Source: Leucoraja erinacea (Eukaryota). Taken from it: a stretch of DNA of 64,000 nt. The position numbers and the translations under genes are program-made. The notes beneath the pieces were generated by a model. It had not been told where the DNA came from. It saw only the letters and a list, made by a program, of their open reading frames with translations, and ran no database searches. The stretch covers positions 13,392,001-13,456,000 of the forward strand of contig NC_073411.1 of NCBI RefSeq assembly GCF_028641065.1. The letters run 5' to 3'. Below are positions 9,465-64,000 of this stretch, in pieces (position 1 is the stretch's first letter; the number at the start of each line of letters is the position of its first letter).

Positions 9465-9686
9465 GTGTTTAAGAAGGAACTGCAGATGATGGAAAATCGA
9501 AGGTACACAAAAATGCTGGAGAAACTCAGCGGGTGCAGCAGCATCTATGGAGTGAAGGAAATAGGCAACGTTTCAAACGTTGCCTATTTCCTTCAGTCTG
9601 AAGAAGGGTTTTGGCTCGAAACGTTGCCTATTTCCTTCGCTCCATAGATGCTGCAGCACCCGCTGTGTTTCTCCAGCATTTTTGTG
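9465..9686. mobile_element. Penelope-derived fold-back insertion
   Basis: Inverted arms with a hammerhead core at 9598-9625. TSD TGCCTGAGAATAGAT at 9450-9464 and 9687-9701. Confidence 0.8.
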
Positions 9687-10245: not shown

Positions 10246-14287
<4,042 letters not shown>

Positions 14288-16620
14288 AAGTGACAAAACA
14301 AGAAACAGAAACTCCTTTACATAATCTGGAATGCAAAAATAAAAGCTGGCTGCAGTTTTATGGATTCACCTGTGCCGTTCCCAATGAATTTTATACTTGG
14401 TGAAGGGCGAGGAGTTCTCTCTGGAAGCTGAGGCTCTGGCCTTGGTTTGAGCAGTCAGCCTGCCATATATGGATGTGCATTTTGAAATATACATATTATA
14501 TAAATAATATATATATTTCTTTTTTATCGCCAGTGTCTGTGACAGCAGTCAGTTGTGCGCTGGTGATCCAGCGTTGTACCGGTCACAGGCGGAAAGGGAG
14601 GCAATAGCAACTTTGTAAGTGTTTTGTTTTGGAAATGTGATGCTTGTTTCCCTAATCTATTTATGCTGTCTGCAGTTCATCTTGTAGAGTGAGTGTGCTT
14701 TTTTATATATAGATTATATACTTGTGTCTGTATATACACATATAGAACTCAGCCTCCCCCGGTAGCACAGTTTTAGTGAATATTGTGACTCGTGGCATGG
14801 TCGACTCGGTTGCTCTGCATCTTCTGAATCTCATTGGAACTGGAGGTTCCTCTGCAGATGCAGCCTGGTGCAAATCTCTCGGCCGGCCAGCCACCCACCC
14901 ACATACCCAACTTTCTTTGGATTCCGCTGATGCCAACACTTTGGTTCTGTCCCAAGCTGCCACTCGGTTGTGTGTCCTTCCCCATCCTCCTTCTCCAGTG
15001 CATGTTTCTTGCCGGCCGCTTCCCCCCCCCCCTTTCTCACTTCACTTGAAAGCCCTTGTGGGGCTGGCCAGAAACGGGAGCCAAAAATGTGACCCGGGAT
15101 TCTTTTTTTTTTTAAGCTTCTGCCACACCACCCACTAGGGATGGACAGTACACGTTTGGTTGGTTTCTTCGTTATCGCCATCCCATCAACAAAAAGGCAT
15201 GGCTTCAGATGTAGCAAGGTCCTGCTCCAGACGGTAGAGGTCCTCCATCTGATGGTGGAGGTCCTCCATCTGATGGTAGAGATTCTCCATCTGATGGTGG
15301 AAGTCCTTCATCTGATGGTAGAGAATCTCCATCTGATGGTGGAAGTCCTTCATCTGATGGTGGAGATTCTCCATCTGATGGTGGAAGTCCTTCATCTGAT
15401 GGTGGTCTTCCATTTTCCATTGGCTGGTGGAAGTCCTCCATCGGATGGTGGAGGTCCTCCTCCAGATGGTAGAGGTCCTCCATCTGATGGTAGAGGTCCT
15501 CCATCTGATGGTAGAGGTCCTCCATCTGATGGTAGAGGTCCTCCATCTGATGGTGGAAGTCCTCCATCTGATGGTGGAGGTCTTGCATTTTCCATTGGCT
15601 GGTGGAGGTCCTCCATCTGATGGTGGAGGTCCTCCTCCAAATCTTAGAGGTCCTGTCACTGTGGTGGTACTGGTGTGCACAATCTAGAGTGAGATCCACG
15701 TCTGGCACTGCAGTCTCAAGCCTCACGTATGTGGACTGGAGCAGTACCTAGCCCCTTAGAAACTGCCCTTGCAAGTGGATGATAGGAGCTGCTGGTCCTC
15801 TACTCTGGGTGTGATTTAAACCAAATCCCTGCGGTGAGCCGATGCTGATGTGCTTCTCAATGACTAGCTTTGTGGCAGCAACCAGGAGCACGGACATAGC
15901 TGGTCTTTCACCCATTTACACATGAGCTCTGAGACTACTGTAGCAGCCATTCTACATCCTTGCTGAGGCCTAACTCCGCAGAAAGGGAGACACCACTCCA
16001 AAGTCCTCCTCAATGGGATCTTCCTCGTGCATGCAACCTTGCAGAAGCCTCAGTGGGTGTTCCTGTCTGGCTCCTGTTGTTTAATTAACTTTTGAACATT
16101 AAGAGACAACAGTGATCAGAATCGAGACCTGTCCTGTAGTGATTTTGCTCAAGGATCTTATGATGTTTCACCACCTTCTGACCCACTTGCTTGCTGCAGG
16201 TGTGTGGGCAATGGCTGGGTTGTAGCCCTGGGCGGTGGGGAGTTCTTGTCTCACTGCAGCATCTCAACACTAAGTGCTGCAACAGGCCGTGGAAAATCCC
16301 TTGTGTAGGACTGGAGTGAGTTTGTAAATAAAGCACTGCGTGTGGAAAGTGGCCTCCTGACCACTCTGCTGCCACGTCTGATGTCCATTTCCAGCCAAGG
16401 TTTAATCTCTTCCGTAAACTCGAATGGATTGATTTAAAATGAAGAAAAAACTAAGATTTGAAATGGAAAAGATAAATATACATGGTTTTTAAGTTTAAAA
16501 TAAATGATGGGGTTTTCACCGAATGATCTAGCCTCGTGTTGGTACCATGTAGTGTTCTGTCTTTTTTAACAGTGTGTTCCAATATGCAAAGTCCTTTCCT
16601 AAGCTGTGTGAATAAATTGG
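14288..16620 (+). other. Probable long 3' UTR of UBE2D4-like with alternative poly(A) signals
   Basis: AATAAA at 14338, 16499 and 16611. The ~2.3 kb stretch is AU-rich in parts and free of the interspersed repeats that saturate the introns. Confidence 0.55.
15232..15636. repeat. 21-bp minisatellite (GATGGTGGAGGTCCTCCATCT)n
   Basis: About 17 units, twice interrupted by CATTTTCCATTGGCT. Confidence 0.95.
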
Positions 16621-16945: not shown

Positions 16946-17020
16946 CAGTGCCCTACATAATGTTTGGGACAAAGACCCATCATTTATTTATTTGACTCTG
17001 TACTCCACAATTTGAGATTT
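16946..17020 (+). mobile_element. Tc1/mariner terminal fragment
   Basis: TA|CAGTGCCCTACATAATGTTTGGGACA, a typical Tc1 TIR start. No matching right end was seen. Confidence 0.55.
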
Positions 17021-17254
17021 GAGAGGGTCCCTGGATGGTGAGAAGAGGTGAAAGGACATTAGTTGGATCTTTCTCGGTTGCAGGCAGAAGTGCCATAAAA
17101 GAGGATTGGTTGTCGAGGATGGGTCCAAATCTTGTTGGAACTGATGGAAATTGTGATGGGCGATCTGCTGAATACAAAGATTGGCGAGGCGAAAGGCAAG
17201 GACTAGGGGAGGGAGCTCTGCTCTTGTTTTGTCCAGGAGGAGAGGGCTTTTTTT

Positions 17255-17580
17255 AGCTTATTTAGTTTAGAGGTACAGCGCGGAAACAGGCCCATCGGCA
17301 CACAGAGTCTGTGTCGCCCAGTGATCCCTGCACATTAACACAAGCCTACACTCATTAGGACAGTTTACACTTACACCAAGTATACAAACCCAAACCAATG
17401 AACCTACAAACCTGTACGTCTTTGGAGTGTGGGAGGAATCCGAAGATCTCAGAGAAAACCCACGCGGTCACAGGGAGAATGCACAAACTCCGTACAGACA
17501 GCACCCGTAGTCGGGATTGAACCCGGGTCTCCGGCACTGCATTCGATGTAAGGCAGCAGCTCTACCGCTGTGCCACCGAA
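17255..17580 (-). mobile_element. tRNA-derived SINE (HE1/V-SINE-like)
   Basis: The minus strand has A/B boxes (GGTGGCACAGCGGTAGAG...CCGGGTTCAATCC), a conserved central domain (GGAGTTTGT..TTCTCCC.GTGACCGCGTGGG) and a CR1-like tail ending (CTAAA)n. Other copies lie at about 20845-21080, 23640-23830, 29365-29645, 30130-30725 and 48600-48875. Confidence 0.8.
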
Positions 17581-17666
17581 AGTCTCATTGGAACAATTCA
17601 GATGGAATGGAGAATTACAGGAGATGGGGTTGGAGGAAGTAGTCAAACCAACTGGTGTTTATTATT

Positions 17667-17864
17667 GTTTAAGAGGGAACTGCAGATGCTGGAGAATCGA
17701 AGGTTACACAAAAAAGCTGGAGAAACTCAGTGGGTGCAGCAGCATCTATGGAGCGAAGGAAAAGTTAATTTCCATCAGTTCCAACAAGATTTGGACCCAT
17801 CCTCGACAACCAATCCTCTTTTATGGCACTTCTGCCTGCAACCGAGAAAGATCCAACTAATGTC
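17667..17864 (-). mobile_element. Penelope-derived insertion carrying an inverted copy of neighbouring genomic DNA
   Basis: Element end at 17667-17760, then 17767-17866, which is the exact reverse complement of 17053-17152. TSD CTGGTGTTTATTATT at 17652-17666 and 17865-17879. Confidence 0.8.
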
Positions 17865-18509
17865 CTGGTGTTTATTATTCCTTTGGGAAACCATTGCTCC
17901 ATCAGGATAGCTCGTTAATGCTATACAGTCCTACATTGCTATGCGTTATGAACCCTAATGCACGGTGTGAAGAAGGGTCGCGGCCCAAAACGTCACCTAT
18001 TCCTTCACTTCAGAGATGCTGCTTGTCCTGCTGAGTTACTCCAGCTTTTTGTGTCTTATGACATTGCAATCCTGATAGCAAATGTACAGCCTTTTAGAAA
18101 CAAGGAACTGCAGGTGCTGGTTTACAACACACAAAAAAAACGACAAAGTGCTGGAGTAACACAGCACCTAAGGCACATCATGCTGGAGAATATGGATGGG
18201 TGACAGCACTCATCTCTGGACTGATTATAGAGAGAAGAAAACTGCAAGGAATGGGCAGGACAGAGCCTGGCAAGTAGTAGGTTGATACAGTAGGTGAGAG
18301 GAGAAATGAAATGAAATGATTCAATTTATTGTCATTGTCAGTGTACAGGAGGGAGTTGGTAGGCAGATGGTTGGACAAAGGCCAGAGATGTAGAGGCAGA
18401 GGGTATGAGACAGACAACAGGATTGAAGAGTTGTGAATTGTGAAACTAGAGGAAGGAATGCAGGTGTACCGTGTCTCTGGGTGGCGCTGTTGGCAGGGGG
18501 TGGCCAGTG

Positions 18510-19284: not shown

Positions 19285-22200
19285 ATGTGCTGCCGCGGCG
19301 GCGGCGAGCGGGACCTGCAGGGCTCGGCAAGGCGGATGGGCGCCTCGCTGCTGCAGCAACTGTCGGCCCACGAGCGGGAGCTCGACCTCGTCTTCCTCGA
19401 CCACAGTTACGCCAAACCCTGGAGCGCGCACCCCGAGGCCGGCGGCTCCCGGCCCGCACGCAGGCTCTTCCTCACCCCGCGGCGGCACCCTGACAGCACC
19501 AGGTGAGGGGCCGAACGGCCGCGCCACCCCTTCCTCTCTCCCCACTCCCTTTCTCCTCTTCCCCCCTCCCTCTATCCCCTCCTCCCCTCATCTTTCCCCC
19601 ATCCCTCCCTCCCTCTTCCTCCCCCCATCCCTCCCTCCATCCTCTTCCCCCCATCCCTCCCTCCATCCCTCCTCCCTCTCCTCCCCCTCCCTCCCCACCC
19701 CCTCTCAACCTCCCCCCCCCTCTCCACCTCCTCCCCACCTCCCCTCTCTCCAAACTCCCCCACTCCCTCCTCTTCCCCTCCCTCCTCTTCCCCTCCCCTC
19801 CTCCCCCCCCCTCCCTCCTCTTCCCCCTCCCTCCTCTTCGCCCTCCCCTCCTCCTCCTCCCCCCTCCCTCCTCTTCGCCCTCCCTCCTCCTCTTCCCCCT
19901 TCCCTCTCCTCCCCCTCTCCATCCCCCCCTCCACCTCCTTCCCTCCCCTTCCCTCCCCCCTCCGCTTCCCCTCCTCCCCCCCCCCTCCCTTCCTCCCCCC
20001 TCCACCTCCTCCCTTCCTCCCCCCTCCACCTCCTCCCCATCTCCCCTCCATGCTGCCTGTCCTGCTGAGTTACTCCAGCATTTTGTGTCTACCTCTGAGG
20101 ATGATTTGCACTGGGGCATATAATGGATAGAAGGAATGGGTGACCTTTCGGGTCGAGACACTTCTTCAGTTTATTTCTAGCCGGTTCTGCTTTGTGTTGA
20201 TACCTGAATACATCTGAGCAACCTTGCGTTTTACAGCGACTGTGAGGTGTCTGTGGATGTGGAGACGGTAGTTCCAACACCGACCCCTCTTTACGACAAC
20301 CAGAAGGCATGGAGCGTGATGAATGAATGTGAGCGGCATGTCATCTTCGCCAGGTCAGACACGGACGCCCCGCTCCCACCTGACGACTGGGAGGAGCACA
20401 TCAGCAGGTAAGAGCTCCCCGTCACCACGTGGTGATCTCCGCGCACCTCGCCGGTAGATCGGTTACTGCATCGCTGTGCCTAGACCCACTCACTCCCCAT
20501 AGCCAACCAATCCCTGGTTCACAATCTCAAATCACGATCCAGGGGCCACAGTTCAAGAATAAGGAGTAAGCCATTTAGAACGGAGACGAGGAAACACTTT
20601 TTCTCATGGAGAGTTGTGAGTCTGTGGAATTCTTTGCCTCAGAGGGCTATGGAGGCAGGTTCTCTGGATGCTTTCAAGAGAGAGATAGATAGGGCTCTTA
20701 AAAATAGCGTAGTCAGGGGATATGGAGAGAAGTCAGGAACGGGGTACTGATTGTGCATGATCAGCCATGATCACATTGAATGGAGGTGCTGGCTCGAAGG
20801 GCCAAATGGCCTACACCTGCACCTCTTGTCTATTGTCAAAGTGCGCCACACTGTGGCGCAGCACCAGGGACCCAAGTTCCATCCTGACCTCGACCCCTGT
20901 CCGTGTGGAGTTTGTACATTTCTCCCTGTGACTGCGTGGGCTTCCTTCAGGTGCTCCAGTTTCCTCCCACATCCCAAAGACGTGCGGGTTTACAGGTTAA
21001 TTGACCCTCTGTAACTTGCCGCCTAGTGTGCAGGGGAGTGGATGTGAAAGTGGAATAACATCGAATGAGTGTGAGCGGGTGACACACACGCGTAGCGCAC
21101 TACTGGCCTTTCCCAGGGGGGGTCGGGCTGCTGCTCTGGAAACCTCACACTTGTTGAAGTAATCAAACAATAAAGACTTTGAAATCTAGAATTGTTGGGG
21201 ATTCTGGGTTTGAGATGAGGCTGTGGATTCACCAAGATCTAAATGGCAACTCTTGTGTGGTCCAATGTCTCACACTCTGGTACTTGGTACGAGTCTGCTT
21301 CATGTATGCTAGGATAGACACTGAACCTTATGCAGAAAATAATGCCACTGTGCTAGGGTACACATGACTGTAACGTCTGAAGATAGGTCTCGACCTGAAA
21401 CGTCACCCATTCCTTCTCTCCAGAAATGCTGCCTGTCCCGCTGAGTTACTCCAGCATTTTGTGTCTCTCTTGGGTTTAAACCAGCATCTGCAGTTCCTTC
21501 CTACACACTGACAGTGATGTACCGCTGACCCATTGAATGGTAGGTCAGGCGTGAAGACTGAATGGTCTCAGCTTGCTGTGCTGTGCCGCGTTACACTCAA
21601 ATCGGTTGCTGGAGTCAGAAGCTGCCGCCTCGCTGTCTGCGGCCCACCGCTCCCGTCTTCCCCGCGACACCGGGTGCTCGATGGCTGATCGCTGCTCCTG
21701 TCTCCGGCTCCACCTGACACATGGTCTCCCTCTTTCCCCCCCCCTCCAGATCAGGGTGGAGTGTGGCGCAGAACAAGCTGTTCAACAAAATCGTGAAGGT
21801 GCTGTACTCGGACCGCTTGGCCAGGCTGGCCAACGAAGGGGTGAGTGTGCGTGGTCAGCTGCCCCGGTTAATGTCGGCTCTCACTAACTCATGGATGGGC
21901 GAGAAGGGGAGGGGAGGGAGGGAGGGGGACACACACGGTCGACCAGAGCTGGCTAGCTGGATGCCTGGCACTGAGCCAGAGGCTTGGGTGTCTGACTGGG
22001 AGCGCCACATATTCTCCATATTACCTGCAAGATGGCAAGCAATGAAGTCCCCCCGGTTTTGGGAGACTGGGGGGGAAGCAAAGCACTTGGTAACGGGAGA
22101 CTGGGAACAATGATGTGCTCAGGTAGACAAAAGTGCTGGAGAAACTCAGCGAATGCAGCAGCATCTATGGAGCGAAGGAAATAGGCAACGTTTCGGGCCA

Positions 22201-25200
22201 AAACACTTCTTCAAACTGAAGGAAATAGGCAACGTTTCAGGCCGAAACCCGGAAGGGTTTCGGCCTGAAACGGTGCCTATTTCCTTCGCTCCACATAGAT
22301 GCTGCTGCACCCGCTGAGTTTCTCCAGCACTTTTGTCTACCTTCGATTTTCCAGCATCTGCAGTTCCTTCTTAAACACAATGATGTGCCCAGTTTGCTGG
22401 TGAGGAGCAGGCCCTGCCTTGCACCCCCTGCACTGCCGTGGATAGTTACTGCTCCCCTGATATCGGTGGTCACTGTGAGACCGGAAACTGTTTGCAGGCC
22501 AGCAACGAGCCGGTGCTACGGAGAATCGCAGTGGACAAGTGCGCTCGCCGCATCCGCCAGGCCCTGGCCAGCCTGAACTGGGACACCAAGCTGACGCAGT
22601 GGCTGCACACCACCCTGGTGGATACGCTCAGCCTCTCCATGCTGGCCGCGTACCTCGATGTCCTCCAGACCCTCAAGTGCAAGGTATGGATGGATGCTCC
22701 TGCTCCTCGCGCGCTGGCCCCACTGGGCTCCTCGCCCCTCTAGGACAGAGCACACAGTAATGTAAAAGGACACAGAGTGTTGGAGCAAGGGTGCCGACTC
22801 GAAACGTCACCTATCCAGAGTTCTCCAGAAATGCTGCCTGAGCCACTGAGTAACTCCAGTACTTTGTGTTCTGTTCCGAATGCTCTCTCTGAATGAGAGG
22901 TTTGCTCTGCTCCTACCTCCTTATCTTACTGGAATACACAGTTGGCGACTGCATGCAGACCCTGTTGCTGCCCTCTCGCTGTTAATCTCTCTGCCGTTTC
23001 CCGTAATGCCCAGTTTATTTAGGTGTCTAATGCCCAGAGGCTCTCTGTTCACCAAAGATCCTGTTCTGTTCCCTACACGCCCCACGTGCCGTCGGAACCG
23101 TGGTTTACTTGAGTTGACGGTGCCACCACGTGTTACCCTCATCCTCTGCTCCCTCTCTGGATGTTTTACTACAGCTGCCAACGCTGATCGATAAAATGAT
23201 CATCTCGTCCACGGCCAAGTCTGGGGCAGCCGGTGCCGAGGCCCTGCCCTTGTTGCTGAAGCGACCGTGGGATCCTGCTGTCGGAGTCTTGTCCCACAAC
23301 AAGCCCGTGAGTTACCCCGAGTCTGGTCCCACAACAAGCCTGTGAGTTACCCCGAGTCTGGTCCCACAACAAGCCCGTGAGTTACCGCCGAGTCTTGTCC
23401 CACAACATTCCCATGAGTTACACACAGGTCAGGGTGGCATCTAGGGGGATAAACACCTCTTGGAAATTTTGTGCGTCTGAGAAAAGGAATAGGGTCGAGA
23501 CTCTTTTTCCGACCCGAAACATACACCATTCCTTCTCTCCAGAGATACTGCCTGTCCCGCTGAGTTTCACCAGCATTTTGTGTCTACGTTCGATTCATAT
23601 TTGCAGGTCTTTCCCACACATTTTGACCACTACTTGAGGTTCAGTTTAGTTTAAAGATACAGCATGGCAATGGGCTCTGCCCCACCGAGTCCACATCGAC
23701 CATCGATCACCATGTTATCCCACTTTCTCACCCACTCCCTACACACCATTGACCTGCAAATACACACGCCTTTCGAATGTGGAGGGAAACCGGAGCACCC
23801 GGAGGAAACCCACGCGGTCACAGTGAGACGGTGCACACAGATAAGACCCTGTCGGGTTTTAATGCTTGTTCTCTCCCCGGCAGACTAAGGTCCCAGGTGC
23901 CCCATTGCTTCTCATCGCTCCTGGCGGCCCCACGAATAACATGGCCTCTGCCTCACGCAGGACCCGATTCTGGTTGTCCCAGCTGTCCTGTTTGGGAAAG
24001 GTCAGTGGTGTGTGTGTGTGGTGTGTCTGTTTGTGCTGTGTGTGTGTGCATGCGTGTGTGTGTGTGCGCACGCGTGTTTGTGCTGCGTGTGTGTGCGCGC
24101 GCATCTCTGTCGGATGGGGAGAGGTGATTGATCACCTTTAGTGTGTCGGCTTGGCTGGGCTGGGCTGGGCAGTAACAACGCCTTCATTCAGGGTGGGGAG
24201 GAGGGGTTGGGGTGATGAGGGATTGAGAGGGGGCAGATGTTGGGAATAGGGAACATAGGGTGCGTGGAGGAGGGGGCTGCTGGCAGGGTTGGGGCAGAGT
24301 GTGGAGGGGGGGGGGGTGCAATTTGTTTACATGGGGCAGTAGGGACCCCGTGTGGGTGGGGGCAGCCCCAGGAGTTGCCTGCGGTGCTGTGAGTGTGTGT
24401 GTGTGTGTCTGGGGGGGATGGGGAGGGGACGGTCAGGCTGGCCGCGGGCTAAGGTGTGAGTGCTGCGTGTCAGGTTCGGGTGTGAGTGGTGAGGGTCAGG
24501 GTAGAGTCGGTGTCGAGGGTGGGGCTGGCCGTGGGCGCGAGTGTGACCACTGTTCCTTGTCCTACAGGTAATCCCGGTCACCATGCACATTGTCAACGGC
24601 GGCTCTGGAGTGAGCGTGTCCCAGTGCCTGGAGCACATGATTGGGGCCGTCCGCACAAAGGTCCTGGAGGTTGGTGCTGCGATCGATGCTCCACTTAGTG
24701 ACCACAGGGGCCCCATGGAGCCTGAACCCACACAGTCCGATAATCCCACTGTCTGTCTGCTCATGGTCATTCTAAGAACATAGATCAAGTCAAGTCACTT
24801 TTATTTACGTAGCACATTTAAAAAACAACTCTCGTTGGCCAAAGTGCTTTACATTGGTAGTACATACATAAATACATACATATAGCCCTCACTCAGAGGA
24901 CATCTGAGATCATAAAATAGGTGCAGAATTAGACCATTCGGCCCATCGAGTGGGCACGCCATTTGATCATGGCTGATTTATTTTACCCTCCCATCCCAAT
25001 TCTCCTGCCTTAACGCCATAACCTTAGATACCTTTACTAATCAAGAACCTGTCAATCTCCATTTTAGAAATATCCATTGACTTGGCCTCCACTGCCGTAT
25101 GTTGCAATGGATTCCGCAGATTCACCACCTTTTGGATTAAGACATTTCTCCTTATCTCATTTTATTCTGAAGCTGTTCCCATCTGGTCCTAGACTCTCCC

Positions 25201-48160: not shown

Positions 48161-50504
48161 AATGTTTGAGAAGGAACTGCAGATGCTGGAAAATCGAAGG
48201 TACACAAAAATGCTGGAGAAACTCAGCGGGTGCAGCAGCATCTATGGAGCGAAGGAAATAGGCAACGTTTTGGGCCGAAACCCTTCTTCAGTCTGATGGG
48301 GTGTTTCACTTAGACCAATCTTGGCTAAAAGACAACAAATATCACTTGAAATCTAGAATTGGAAGAGATTAATTAACCTGAGATGATGCTCTTTGCTTTT
48401 AACATTGGCGCCAGAGTGGAATGTGTTCTCGACATTGAACTATTCAGACAGGCCCAGTGCAAATTGGAGGAACAGAACCTCATATTTCGCTTGGGTGATA
48501 TCAATGCCGAACAAGATGCCAGATTAAACTAGTCTCTTCTGCCTGTCCCATACCACTCCATCGTCTGAATCCCGACGATCCGTGGCCTATCCCCAACGGC
48601 AGGCGTGGTTCGGGCACCACTGAGACCCGGGTTCGATCCTGACTCTCGGTGCAGTCTCTATGGAGTTTGTATGTTCTCCATGTGACTGCCTGGGTTTTCT
48701 CCAAGATCTACGGTTTCCTCCCACACTCCAAAGATGTATGAGTTTGTAGGTTAATTGGCTTGGTATAAGTGTAAATTGTCCCTAGTAGTAGGACAGAGTT
48801 AATGTGCGGGCATCACTGGTCGGTGCGGACTCGGTGGGCTGAAGGGCCTGTTTCCAAGCTGTATCTGTAAACTAAAAAAAAAAAATATATATATATAAGG
48901 TTGGGTCTCTTCCTCATCCAGCAAACAAGAGAGAGAAAAATAGTTTTGCACTATTATGGTGATGGTCTGGTTATGCAGTATTACTGATTATTAATTTCCT
49001 GACATCGATTATCGTATATTTGTTTGTGTATTTTGCATTAACGGGTCTGTTAAGCTGCAGCAAGTCGCAATTTAATTGTTCCCTTGCCAAGTTCATATGA
49101 CAATTAAAAACTCTTGACTCTCGATAAATGAGTGCAGGCATCACTTTTCCGAAGGCCTGGACAGGGTGGCTGGGGCAATATTCACCTCCATGGGCAAGGG
49201 GAGGGGTAACAGATCCCCTCTGCGGGTGAGGGGTGTGCGGGGCCGAGACTCAGTCCCCCCCAATGACAAGGGGCTGGTGGTGGGAATGAGGGGAGGGGTT
49301 CCATATCTCCATCCACACAAAGGCCGTCATTGTATACAGCTTAAACTGGCAGCTCGTTCCAGATACAGACTACCCTCCAAGTGAAAAGGTTGCCCCTGAT
49401 GTCCCTTCTTAAATCTCTCCCCTCTCACCATAAGCATGTGCCCTCTAATTTTAGACCCCGGGGAAACGAGTGTGAATGTTCCACATTAGACAATAGACAA
49501 TAGACAGTAGGTGCAGGAGTAGGCCATTTGGCCCTTCGAGCCAGCACCGCAATTCAATGTGATCATCCCTAATCCGTACCTCGTTCCTGCCTTCTCCCCA
49601 TATCCCGACTCCGCTATTTTTTAAGAGCCCTATCTAGCTCTCTCTTGAAAGCATCCGGAGAACTGGCCCCCACCGAGGCAGATAATTCCACAGACTCACC
49701 ACTCTCTGTGAGAAAAAGTGTTTCCTCGTCTCCGTTCTAAATGGCTTACTCCTTATTCTTAAACTGTAGCCCCTGGTTCTGGACTCCCCCAACATGGGGA
49801 ACATGTTTCCTGCCTCTAGTGTGTCCAAGCCCTTAACAATCTTATATGTTTCCACATTATCCATGAGGGTGAAGGAGATGGAGGAAAGGGTTTATCCCTC
49901 ATGAGAGGTGCAGGCTGATCTTCAGGGACAAGATTCATGGAGCATTACAACAGTTCCCTCCCTCCACACCGACCAAGGTGCCCATCTAAGCTAGTCCCAA
50001 TTGTAAGTAGTAAGTCCAAAAAGTAAGGAGCCTTGTGTGTGTAGGAAGGAACTACAGATGCTGGTTTAAATCGAAGATGGAATAAAAATGCTGGAGCAAC
50101 TCAGCGGGACAGGCAGCATCGACCCGAAATGTCACCCATTCCTCCTCTCCATTGATGCTGCCTGTCCCGCTGAGATACTCCAGCATTTTGTGTCTATCTT
50201 CGGTTTAAACCAGCACCTGCAGTTCCTTCCTACACACACATGGTCCATGTTTGATCAATTTCCCTCTGAAGGGTGTGATTCCATTGGAAAGGGCGCAGAG
50301 GAGATTCACCAGGATGTTACCCGGGCCTGAGAGGTTGGACAGGCTGGGCCTTCTTAGGAGGCTGAGGCGTCGTGACCTTATTGAGGTGCACAAGATCATG
50401 AGGGGCACGGTGGAGGTGAACAGTCTTCACCCTACCATAGGTAGACAAAAATGCTGGAGAAACTCAGCGGGTGCGGCAGCATCTGTGGAGCGAAGGAAAT
50501 AGGC

Positions 50505-62707: not shown

Positions 62708-62936
62708 TGTGTTTAAGAAGGAACTGCAGATGCTGGAAAATCGAAGGTATACAAAAATGCTGGAGAAACTCAGCGGGTGCAGCAGCATCTATGGAGCGAA
62801 GGAAATGGGCAACGTTTCGGGCCGAAACCCAGAAGGGTTTCAGCCCGAAACGTTGCCTATTTCCTTCAGTCTGAAGAAGGGTTTTGGCCTGAAACGTTGC
62901 TTATTTCCTTCGCTCCATAGATGCTGCTGCACCCGC
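62708..62936. mobile_element. Penelope-derived fold-back insertion nested in a CR1 RT fragment
   Basis: Inverted arms with a hammerhead core at 62871-62898. TSD TGACTTGGATAGATAG at 62692-62707 and 62937-62952; removing the insert restores CR1 LQGDLDRL. Confidence 0.8.
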
Positions 62937-64000
62937 TGACTTGGATAGATAGGTTGGGTGAGTGGGCAGATTGCAGTATAATGTGGATAAATGTGAGGTT
63001 ATCACCTTTGGTGACGAGAACAGGAAGGCAGATTATTATCTGAATGGCGTCAAGTTGGGGAAAGGGGAGGTACAACGAGACCTGGGTGTCATCACCTCTC
63101 CATCTTCTAGAGTTGCTGCCTGACCCGTTGCATTACGTAAACATGGAACATACAGCACAGGAAGTCTTATCTGCCTGCACATCCCTTCAATTCCCTGCAT
63201 ATACATAGAAACATAGAAAATAGGTGCAGGAGTAGGCCATTCGGCCCTTCGAGCCTGCACCGCCATTCAATATGATCATGGCTGATCATCCAACTCAGTA
63301 TCCCATACCTGCTTTCTCTCCATACCCACTGATCCCTTTAACCACAAGGGCCACATCTAACCCCCTCTTAAATATAGCCAATGAACTGTGGCCTCAACTA
63401 CCCTCTGTGGCAGAAAGTTCCAGAGATTCACCACTCTCTGTGTGAAAAATGTTTTTCTCATCTCGGTCTTAAAGGATTTCCCCCTTATCCTTAAACTGTG
63501 ACCCCTTGTCCTGGACTTCCCCAACATCGGGAACAATCTTCCTGCATCTAGCCTGTCCAACCCATTAAGAATTTTGTAAGTTTCTATAAGATCCCCCATC
63601 AATCTCCTAAATTCTAGTGAGTATAAGCCAAGTCTATATCCGGCATATCCATGCGCCTCTCCAGTATCTTAAATGCCACTATCGTATCTGCCTCCACCAT
63701 CATCCCTGGCAATGTGTTCCAGGCACCCACCTCCCTCTTGTGTGGGGGGAAAAAATATCTGCATATCTCCTTTAAACCTTGCCCCTCTCACCTGAAAGCT
63801 GTGCCCTCGGGTATTTGATATTTCTACCCTGGGGGGGAAAGATTCTGGCTGTCTACCCCATCTGTGCGGCTCATTAGTTGACAAAATTCTATCAAATCAC
63901 TCCGGCGTTGCTGAGAAAGCTATCCAAGTCTTTTTATTTTTCATTTCACTGCACGTCTCGTATGTGTATGTGACAAATAAACTTGGCTTGACTTGAAGTC

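Follow-up and report, generated by a model that had tools for sequence, protein, structure and literature searches.

An exact inverted copy of nearby unique DNA at a Penelope-like element insertion in Leucoraja erinacea

In this work, we have analysed a 64,000-nucleotide stretch of DNA from Leucoraja erinacea (the window; G000:C35:13392001-13456000 of the 2.19-Gb assembly, contig NC_073411.1), and our results show that the stub of a Penelope-like element (PLE) lies there beside an exact inverted copy of unique neighbouring DNA, both enclosed by one target-site duplication. The copy, here called the filler (17767-17866, minus strand), is the reverse complement of the source segment (17053-17152, plus strand) at 100 of 100 bases, as the original prediction had stated, with 614 bases between the two, and the identity cannot be extended by even one base on either side. 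BLAST within the window gives this match an E value of 1.6e-47, so it is not due to chance. When positions 17000-17300 were searched against their own 2.19-Gb genome, in a search that skips very common words, the 100-bp segment had only two matches, both in the window. Each flank of the insertion has a single genome match, and there is thus no paralogous or alternative empty site within the assembly.

In the window, the 15-bp duplication CTGGTGTTTATTATT has exactly two copies, 17652-17666 on the left and 17865-17879 on the right (both on the plus strand), and these positions mean that the filler shares its last two nucleotides (CT) with the right copy; the predicted single duplication with a 2-nt overlap is therefore present. 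Between the copies lies an insert of 198 bp, made up of a 96-bp stub of a PLE terminal repeat with its tail (17667-17762, minus strand), a 4-nt linker AGTT (17763-17766, plus strand) that matches neither the element nor the source flank, and the filler to 17864, followed by the two shared bases. The element origin of the left part had been correctly predicted, while its boundary had been set at 17760 and is extended here to 17762, where the linker begins. Thus, the inner junction has a few untemplated bases and the outer junction a 2-nt microhomology. Read from the sequence, the linker falls in the loop of a 5-bp hairpin in which 17758-17762 pair with 17769-17773. The source is ancestral DNA located 499 bp upstream of the insertion site, on the side of the first-primed end, and an unrelated high-copy repeat lies between them at about 17261-17575, with approximate boundaries taken from contig depth and loose ends; we take this repeat to be SINE-like. 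With a segment foreign to the element, of unique and nearby origin, enclosed by the duplication, the structure is a locally templated insertion at a retrotransposition junction. Since the duplication is intact and of modal length, and since the filler ends exactly at it with the microhomology, stub and filler belong to one event; the intact duplication and the unique source likewise support the earlier claim that the filler was templated nearby in a single retrotransposition. The insertion is real and clean, and it is probably young.

On sequence grounds, the stub is the terminal repeat of an endonuclease-bearing PLE. The window copy itself has no ORF, and the stub sequence follows a frame ending in a GIY-YIG domain at ten related loci. 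In one of these (L204) the frame is of 557 aa and matches RVT_1 (E 8.2e-6) and GIY-YIG (E 3.6e-4), both just below the Pfam curated cut-offs, and the stub matches the sequence downstream of it at 87% over 94 nt. The stub differs from seven subfamily copies at 1 position in 94. The insertion carries a target duplication (15 bp), and its siblings have an inverted truncated repeat (an arm in 89 of 113) and a tail of 30-40 bp that is confined to one end. What we take to be hammerhead core-like words were recognized by eye in sibling terminal repeats; the monomeric hammerhead fold was not better than shuffles (z 0.67), Rfam gave 0 matches in the window, and the stub stops short of the hammerhead-like motif. 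The ORF orientation places the element sense on the minus strand, so that the plus strand from 17667 would be first-strand cDNA starting at the tail (cf. PMC11167929). A cysteine-rich linker precedes the endonuclease and, by the description in the accessible passages of PMC8557442, suggests an element of the Neptune type.

The existence of the insertion outside the assembly was addressed with Logan contigs of four of 24 listed sequencing runs, X1, X7 and those of organisms B and C among them. In X1, a 179-nt contig covers 17737-17915 with 0 differences and reaches 30 and 49 nt past the filler; its left overhang is one base short of the 31-base bridging rule of the tool, and X1 is perhaps the sample from which the assembly was made. 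A 319-nt contig of organism C matches rightwards only, from exactly 17865, as an empty site would. The source appears as ordinary flank in organism B (5 differences in 293) and in organism C (3 in 170), where the contigs run through it or across its left edge. In X1, moreover, a left-flank contig with two differences stops exactly at 17666, and the unexplained depth to the right of the insertion fits an unlisted contig 17865-17915 of depth 14.4, one of ten arithmetic solutions, of which no other both begins at the duplication and ends together with the listed contig. The bridging contig has a depth of 29.6, for which a heterozygous filled allele predicts 28-29 and a homozygous one, with a flank depth of 20, predicts 29.4. 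X1 is likely heterozygous for filled and empty alleles, the empty junction being deduced from contig ends and depth. Organism B gives a contrary hint to youth and to a simple empty site, since the match of a 230-nt contig enters the filler for 15 nt and gives way to 85 diverging letters; its source contig is also deeper than the neighbours (38.8 against 24-31). X7 covers neither source nor filler and is uninformative. The comparison with other samples that had been suggested as a check for an empty site thus returned patterns in organism C and in the X1 tables that would fit an empty site, and the contrary hint in organism B. A recent event had also been read from the perfect identity, which dates weakly, because 0 differences in 100 has a probability of 0.14-0.37 at 0.5-1% change per copy; the likely heterozygosity of one sample is a better sign of youth.

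To place this copy among its relatives, we scanned 1.86 Mb, mostly of small chromosomes, and found 376 element ends (294 + 82), from which 113 insertions with a duplication score of at least 11 and an insert of at most 900 bp were kept. Duplications were found at 110 of 294 element ends, compared with 8, 16 and 30 of 294 in three mismatched-flank controls, and their length is 13-15 bp in 75 of the 113. An inverted arm is present in 89 of the 113, so that the filler does stand, as had been proposed, where siblings have theirs; the window copy has the tail and no arm. The accompanying picture of siblings simply folding back on themselves did not hold. Among younger-type arms, 35 of 44 start at element position 26-42, the first 25-41 nt being absent, and 11 of 44 reach at least 9 nt past the aligned end of the first arm (a clear example is at 9467 of the window), a count that internal tandem copies may inflate. 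Arms diverge by 4.3% within one insertion and by 6.7% between insertions, with some discordant subtypes. These start positions and overreaching ends fit second priming better, and taken with the arm sequences they speak for either another priming event or palindromes inherited from the template rather than for simple fold-back. Ten insertions have one inversion junction in common, in either orientation, and because it recurs in independent insertions some palindromes may be inherited from their templates. Examples of the recurring junction, and of tandem hammerhead-like units that likewise recur, are 22086-22376 and 62711-62942 of the window. Another insertion (G000:C34:2863389-2863780) repeats its right junction internally in inverted form, the repeated part being the arm with about 20 nt of flank, which suggests that there the arm was joined to the second end before final joining.

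How often are fillers local? With eight natural element copies as the masking library, a segment of at least 15 nt outside the library was found in 28 of the 113 insertions; most of these are other repeats, element parts absent from the library, false duplications or short linkers, and two of the 28 were searched genome-wide. The present insertion stands alone in having a unique filler whose source lies within 10 kb; as its window was a selected one, the rate is 0 in the 112 others. The family scan that had been proposed for locally templated fillers, in the 1.86 Mb covered here, returned no second close case and two more distant ones. In the first (C35:13536670-13537122, L026), one duplication encloses a stub together with 94 nt of flank and an element copy, inverted and 96% identical to C35:13521334 onward (L024), 15.6 kb away. 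In the second (C34:2703252-2703622, L139), the middle part joins an inverted arm to 78 nt of flank, at 97% and with two genome matches, traced to a palindromic copy at C34:1965267-1965344 (L160), 738 kb away on the same 19.9-Mb contig; its outer arms belong to a different subtype. The three captures traced within a duplication are all inverted and all stem from the contig that holds the insertion, at distances of 0.5 kb, 15.6 kb and 738 kb; since it was a local search that led to the 15.6-kb case, the set is biased toward near sources. We also looked for two-copy local repeats in 1.46 Mb without requiring a duplication. Of the 136 pairs obtained, the present one alone is a perfect copy of unique sequence that lies directly against an element and within a duplication. 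When the junctions of 229 ends were scanned, most of the 18 hits proved to be repeats or the target duplications.

Other arrangements were noted in passing. At G000:C32:6180051-6180365 a stub (C32:6180193), for which no duplication was found, is followed by a 40-nt inverted copy (92.5%) of DNA about 105-140 bp upstream. About 80 nt of unique sequence form a direct repeat 1.2 kb apart at 85% (G000:C30:5050262-5050343 and 5051473-5051546), one copy lying between two element pieces, with no duplication found. In the window, 48164-48500 holds an element head, then about 160 nt that match nowhere else in the genome, and a piece of the endonuclease end in inverted orientation, again with no duplication found, and a 42-nt exact direct repeat (1419-1460 and 1565-1606) flanks an element stub. 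A 192-nt local inverted duplication (G000:C35:13703647-13704539) lies among other repeats, away from Penelope ends.

The gene context had been described as lying between the 3' end of UBE2D4 and the promoter of KANSL3. The upstream gene is placed at the level of the UBE2D family, with coding exons on the plus strand at 10264-12880 (an approximate span of motif matches). Poly(A)-type hexamers follow at 16327, 16499 and 16611, and the inverted repeat lies past them. Downstream, an open frame in a CpG island (19285-19497, plus strand) may be KANSL3-like, by one motif, and had no PDB match. The prediction had pointed out the 100-bp perfect inverted repeat between the two genes; no sign of a function, or of an effect on these neighbours, was seen. 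The folding score of the 841-nt region (z -16) was considered as a sign of function and rejected, being trivial for a 100-bp perfect stem.

We propose that the inverted copy was made in the same integration event, when the stalled cDNA end looped back onto its own upstream DNA strand, an account to which we give about half of our confidence. The element endonuclease would have made staggered nicks 15 bp apart, as family anatomy and PMC11167929 lead one to expect, and the top-strand nick at 17666 would have primed cDNA from the tail start site. Element sequence ends at 17762; a few untemplated bases and the 5-bp hairpin may then have formed, leaving a 3' end complementary to GGAAA. This end could have re-annealed to a look-alike 9-mer at the inner end of the source (17143-17151, plus strand), on the same top strand and made single-stranded by resection or unwinding, and extension leftwards to 17053 would have copied about 100 nt. 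The final two bases, whose microhomology is observed, would have paired with the other target overhang before gap filling. The second target end would thus never have primed the usual inverted arm, and the product would be a repair scar.

The candidate landing 9-mer matches the element cDNA, where the stub stops, at 8 of 9 bases, a match noticed after the fact against a background of 1028 in 191,667 sampled positions (0.5%), and it suggests that the cDNA end switched to the upstream strand. The X1 contig that bridges both junctions is in agreement with this account, as is the C32:6180193 stub with its 40-nt inverted upstream copy; the inverted orientation and a source on the first-primed side are the geometry of intrastrand self-annealing, for which the available passages on L1 and zebrafish LINEs offer precedents. 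Against it, this is a single event, whose direction of synthesis depends on one after-the-fact 9-mer and a 5-bp hairpin, and the organism B contig diverges after 15 nt of filler. The accessible parts of the L1 literature, moreover, describe inverted duplications on the reciprocal end with small hairpins, whereas here the loop is of about 610 nt and on the cDNA side, and in those of Zumalave no template is more than 15 bp away. As sibling arms resemble second priming more than fold-back, the hairpin step is no rule of the family.

The sense of the filler would be the same with a DNA or an RNA template. The reverse transcriptase might instead have jumped from its own RNA to a nascent plus-strand read-through RNA over 17053-17152 and copied 100 nt of it, the new end being joined to the second target end afterwards, which we regard as possible, with perhaps a quarter of our confidence. 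Template jumping is an established behaviour of reverse transcriptases, and the untemplated linker fits it. The source has the right strand and position relative to the UBE2D-family gene, and with about 440 bp between the last poly(A)-type hexamer and the source downstream of it, a nascent RNA of the right sense is plausible. The pieces captured at C35:13537122 and C34:2703622 both combine an element end with flank, the composition expected of a read-through transcript, and at 15.6 and 738 kb they are too far for a resected hairpin, which counts against looping back. The filler, however, has no splice or poly(A) mark, and although one co-insertion of nearby pre-mRNA is reported for L1 in the consulted passages of PMC10191854, the L1 analogues in the parts of the literature available are mostly ascribed to DNA synthesis. 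Synthesis from the opposite side is improbable in our estimation: the second target end would have annealed by two nucleotides to the bottom strand at 17053-17054, been extended rightwards to 17152, and the new ends joined head to head. The filler in the place of the inverted arm, the microhomology at this end and the preferred second site of sibling arms (35 of 44 at 26-42), expected from the anole element (PMC11167929), agree with such a course, but it requires duplex invasion across the break on 2 nt of pairing and gives no clear reason for synthesis to end on an element-like 9-mer.

A two-armed palindromic insertion, as in 89 of the 113 siblings, might have come first and later, through replication or break repair at its hairpin, had an arm swapped by template switching to the look-alike; the inner six bases of the filler are those an inverted arm has there, yet the whole arm would have been removed exactly to the duplication, leaving at most one base, and X1 has signs of an empty allele and none of a two-armed one, so that we hold this to be quite unlikely. 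Still less credible is transduction, in which another haplotype once had a stub at 17152, and a transcript of that stub and its flank was inserted anew 0.5 kb away: element-plus-flank copies do exist in the family, but no element or remnant is seen at 17152 here or in the spanning contig of organism B, and both a lost allele and a local hop are required. An assembly artefact, or a DNA transposon whose 100-bp terminal inverted repeats span 17053-17866, is what we believe least, and both were rejected, as were the misassembly and the multicopy or transposon repeat of which the original prediction had warned. X1 is possibly the assembled sample, and the structure is known from short-read contigs; nevertheless, both junctions are bridged with 0 differences, the organism C contig matches only from the duplication onward, X1 is likely heterozygous, the 100-bp segment has two genome copies, no duplication flanks 17053-17866, and the source is ordinary flank elsewhere.

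If the looping of the cDNA end is correct, what does it say of Penelope integration, in which the steps after first-strand synthesis have not been validated (PMC11167929)? In this inherited case, the Penelope intermediate would have had a free extendable end able to copy neighbouring sequence, as in L1, and the second arm would be optional; a single case settles little. A wider and doubtful idea, which we advance tentatively, is that Penelope integration complexes take up templates that lie close by in the chromosome: at the break, the reverse transcriptase would abandon its own RNA and copy nascent RNA or DNA near at hand, in keeping with the three traced captures, all inverted and all from the contig of the insertion. 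Were this true, Penelope elements would duplicate and invert unique host sequence in cis, and many young stubs would let the second-end step be read from sequence alone.

A search of titles and abstracts, with thin coverage of subscription papers, found no Penelope insertion with a traced local filler, and the accessible passages of PMC13174262 contain nothing on local templates. Endonuclease-bearing PLEs are described with a target duplication, a 30-40 bp tail at one end and an inverted truncated terminal repeat (PMC11167929 and the available passages of PMC3846280 and PMC8557442), and the duplication and tail of this insertion, like the inverted truncated repeat of its siblings, agree with that description. 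An anole Penelope element has two start sites and two-strand extension (PMC11167929). In Adineta PLEs, host DNA is captured between terminal repeats (passages of PMC3846280 and PMC8557442). Here, by contrast, host DNA replaces the inverted arm and its source is traced to the immediate neighbourhood, whereas those PLE passages trace none.

Closer parallels come from LINEs, as far as the accessible parts of these reports go. In L1, an inverted duplication arises by self-annealing of a resected end with 2-bp homology and the duplication kept (Mendez-Dorantes, bioRxiv 2024.12.14.628481); somatic L1 insertions include foldback inverted duplications of 52-220 bp, 0.3% of insertions, and the single pre-mRNA capture (Nam, PMC10191854); and 22 templated insertions of less than 250 bp have templates within 15 bp (Zumalave, bioRxiv 2024.08.27.596794). 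The present case resembles these in a segment of less than 250 bp of nearby genomic DNA, inverted, with 2-bp homology, a duplication kept and a frequency of about 1% of events or fewer. It differs in being a PLE insertion that is inherited, where those are somatic or cultured, in a source 499 bp off rather than within 15 bp (Zumalave), and in a source on the first-primed side rather than at the reciprocal end. In zebrafish ZfL2 LINEs, extra nucleotides at the 5' end are templated by the flank (PMC4760211, PMC4245944), and as here the extra sequence at the truncated junction is copied from the flank and joined by annealing, although the passages speak of "several" nucleotides, compared with 100 bp from 0.5 kb away in the skate. 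The original prediction had presented the insertion as a snapshot of the mechanism, and this mechanism has already been described for LINEs, human L1 among them. Templated repair at retrotransposition junctions is thus known, and by this analogy the insertion is a new example of it in a less-studied group of elements.
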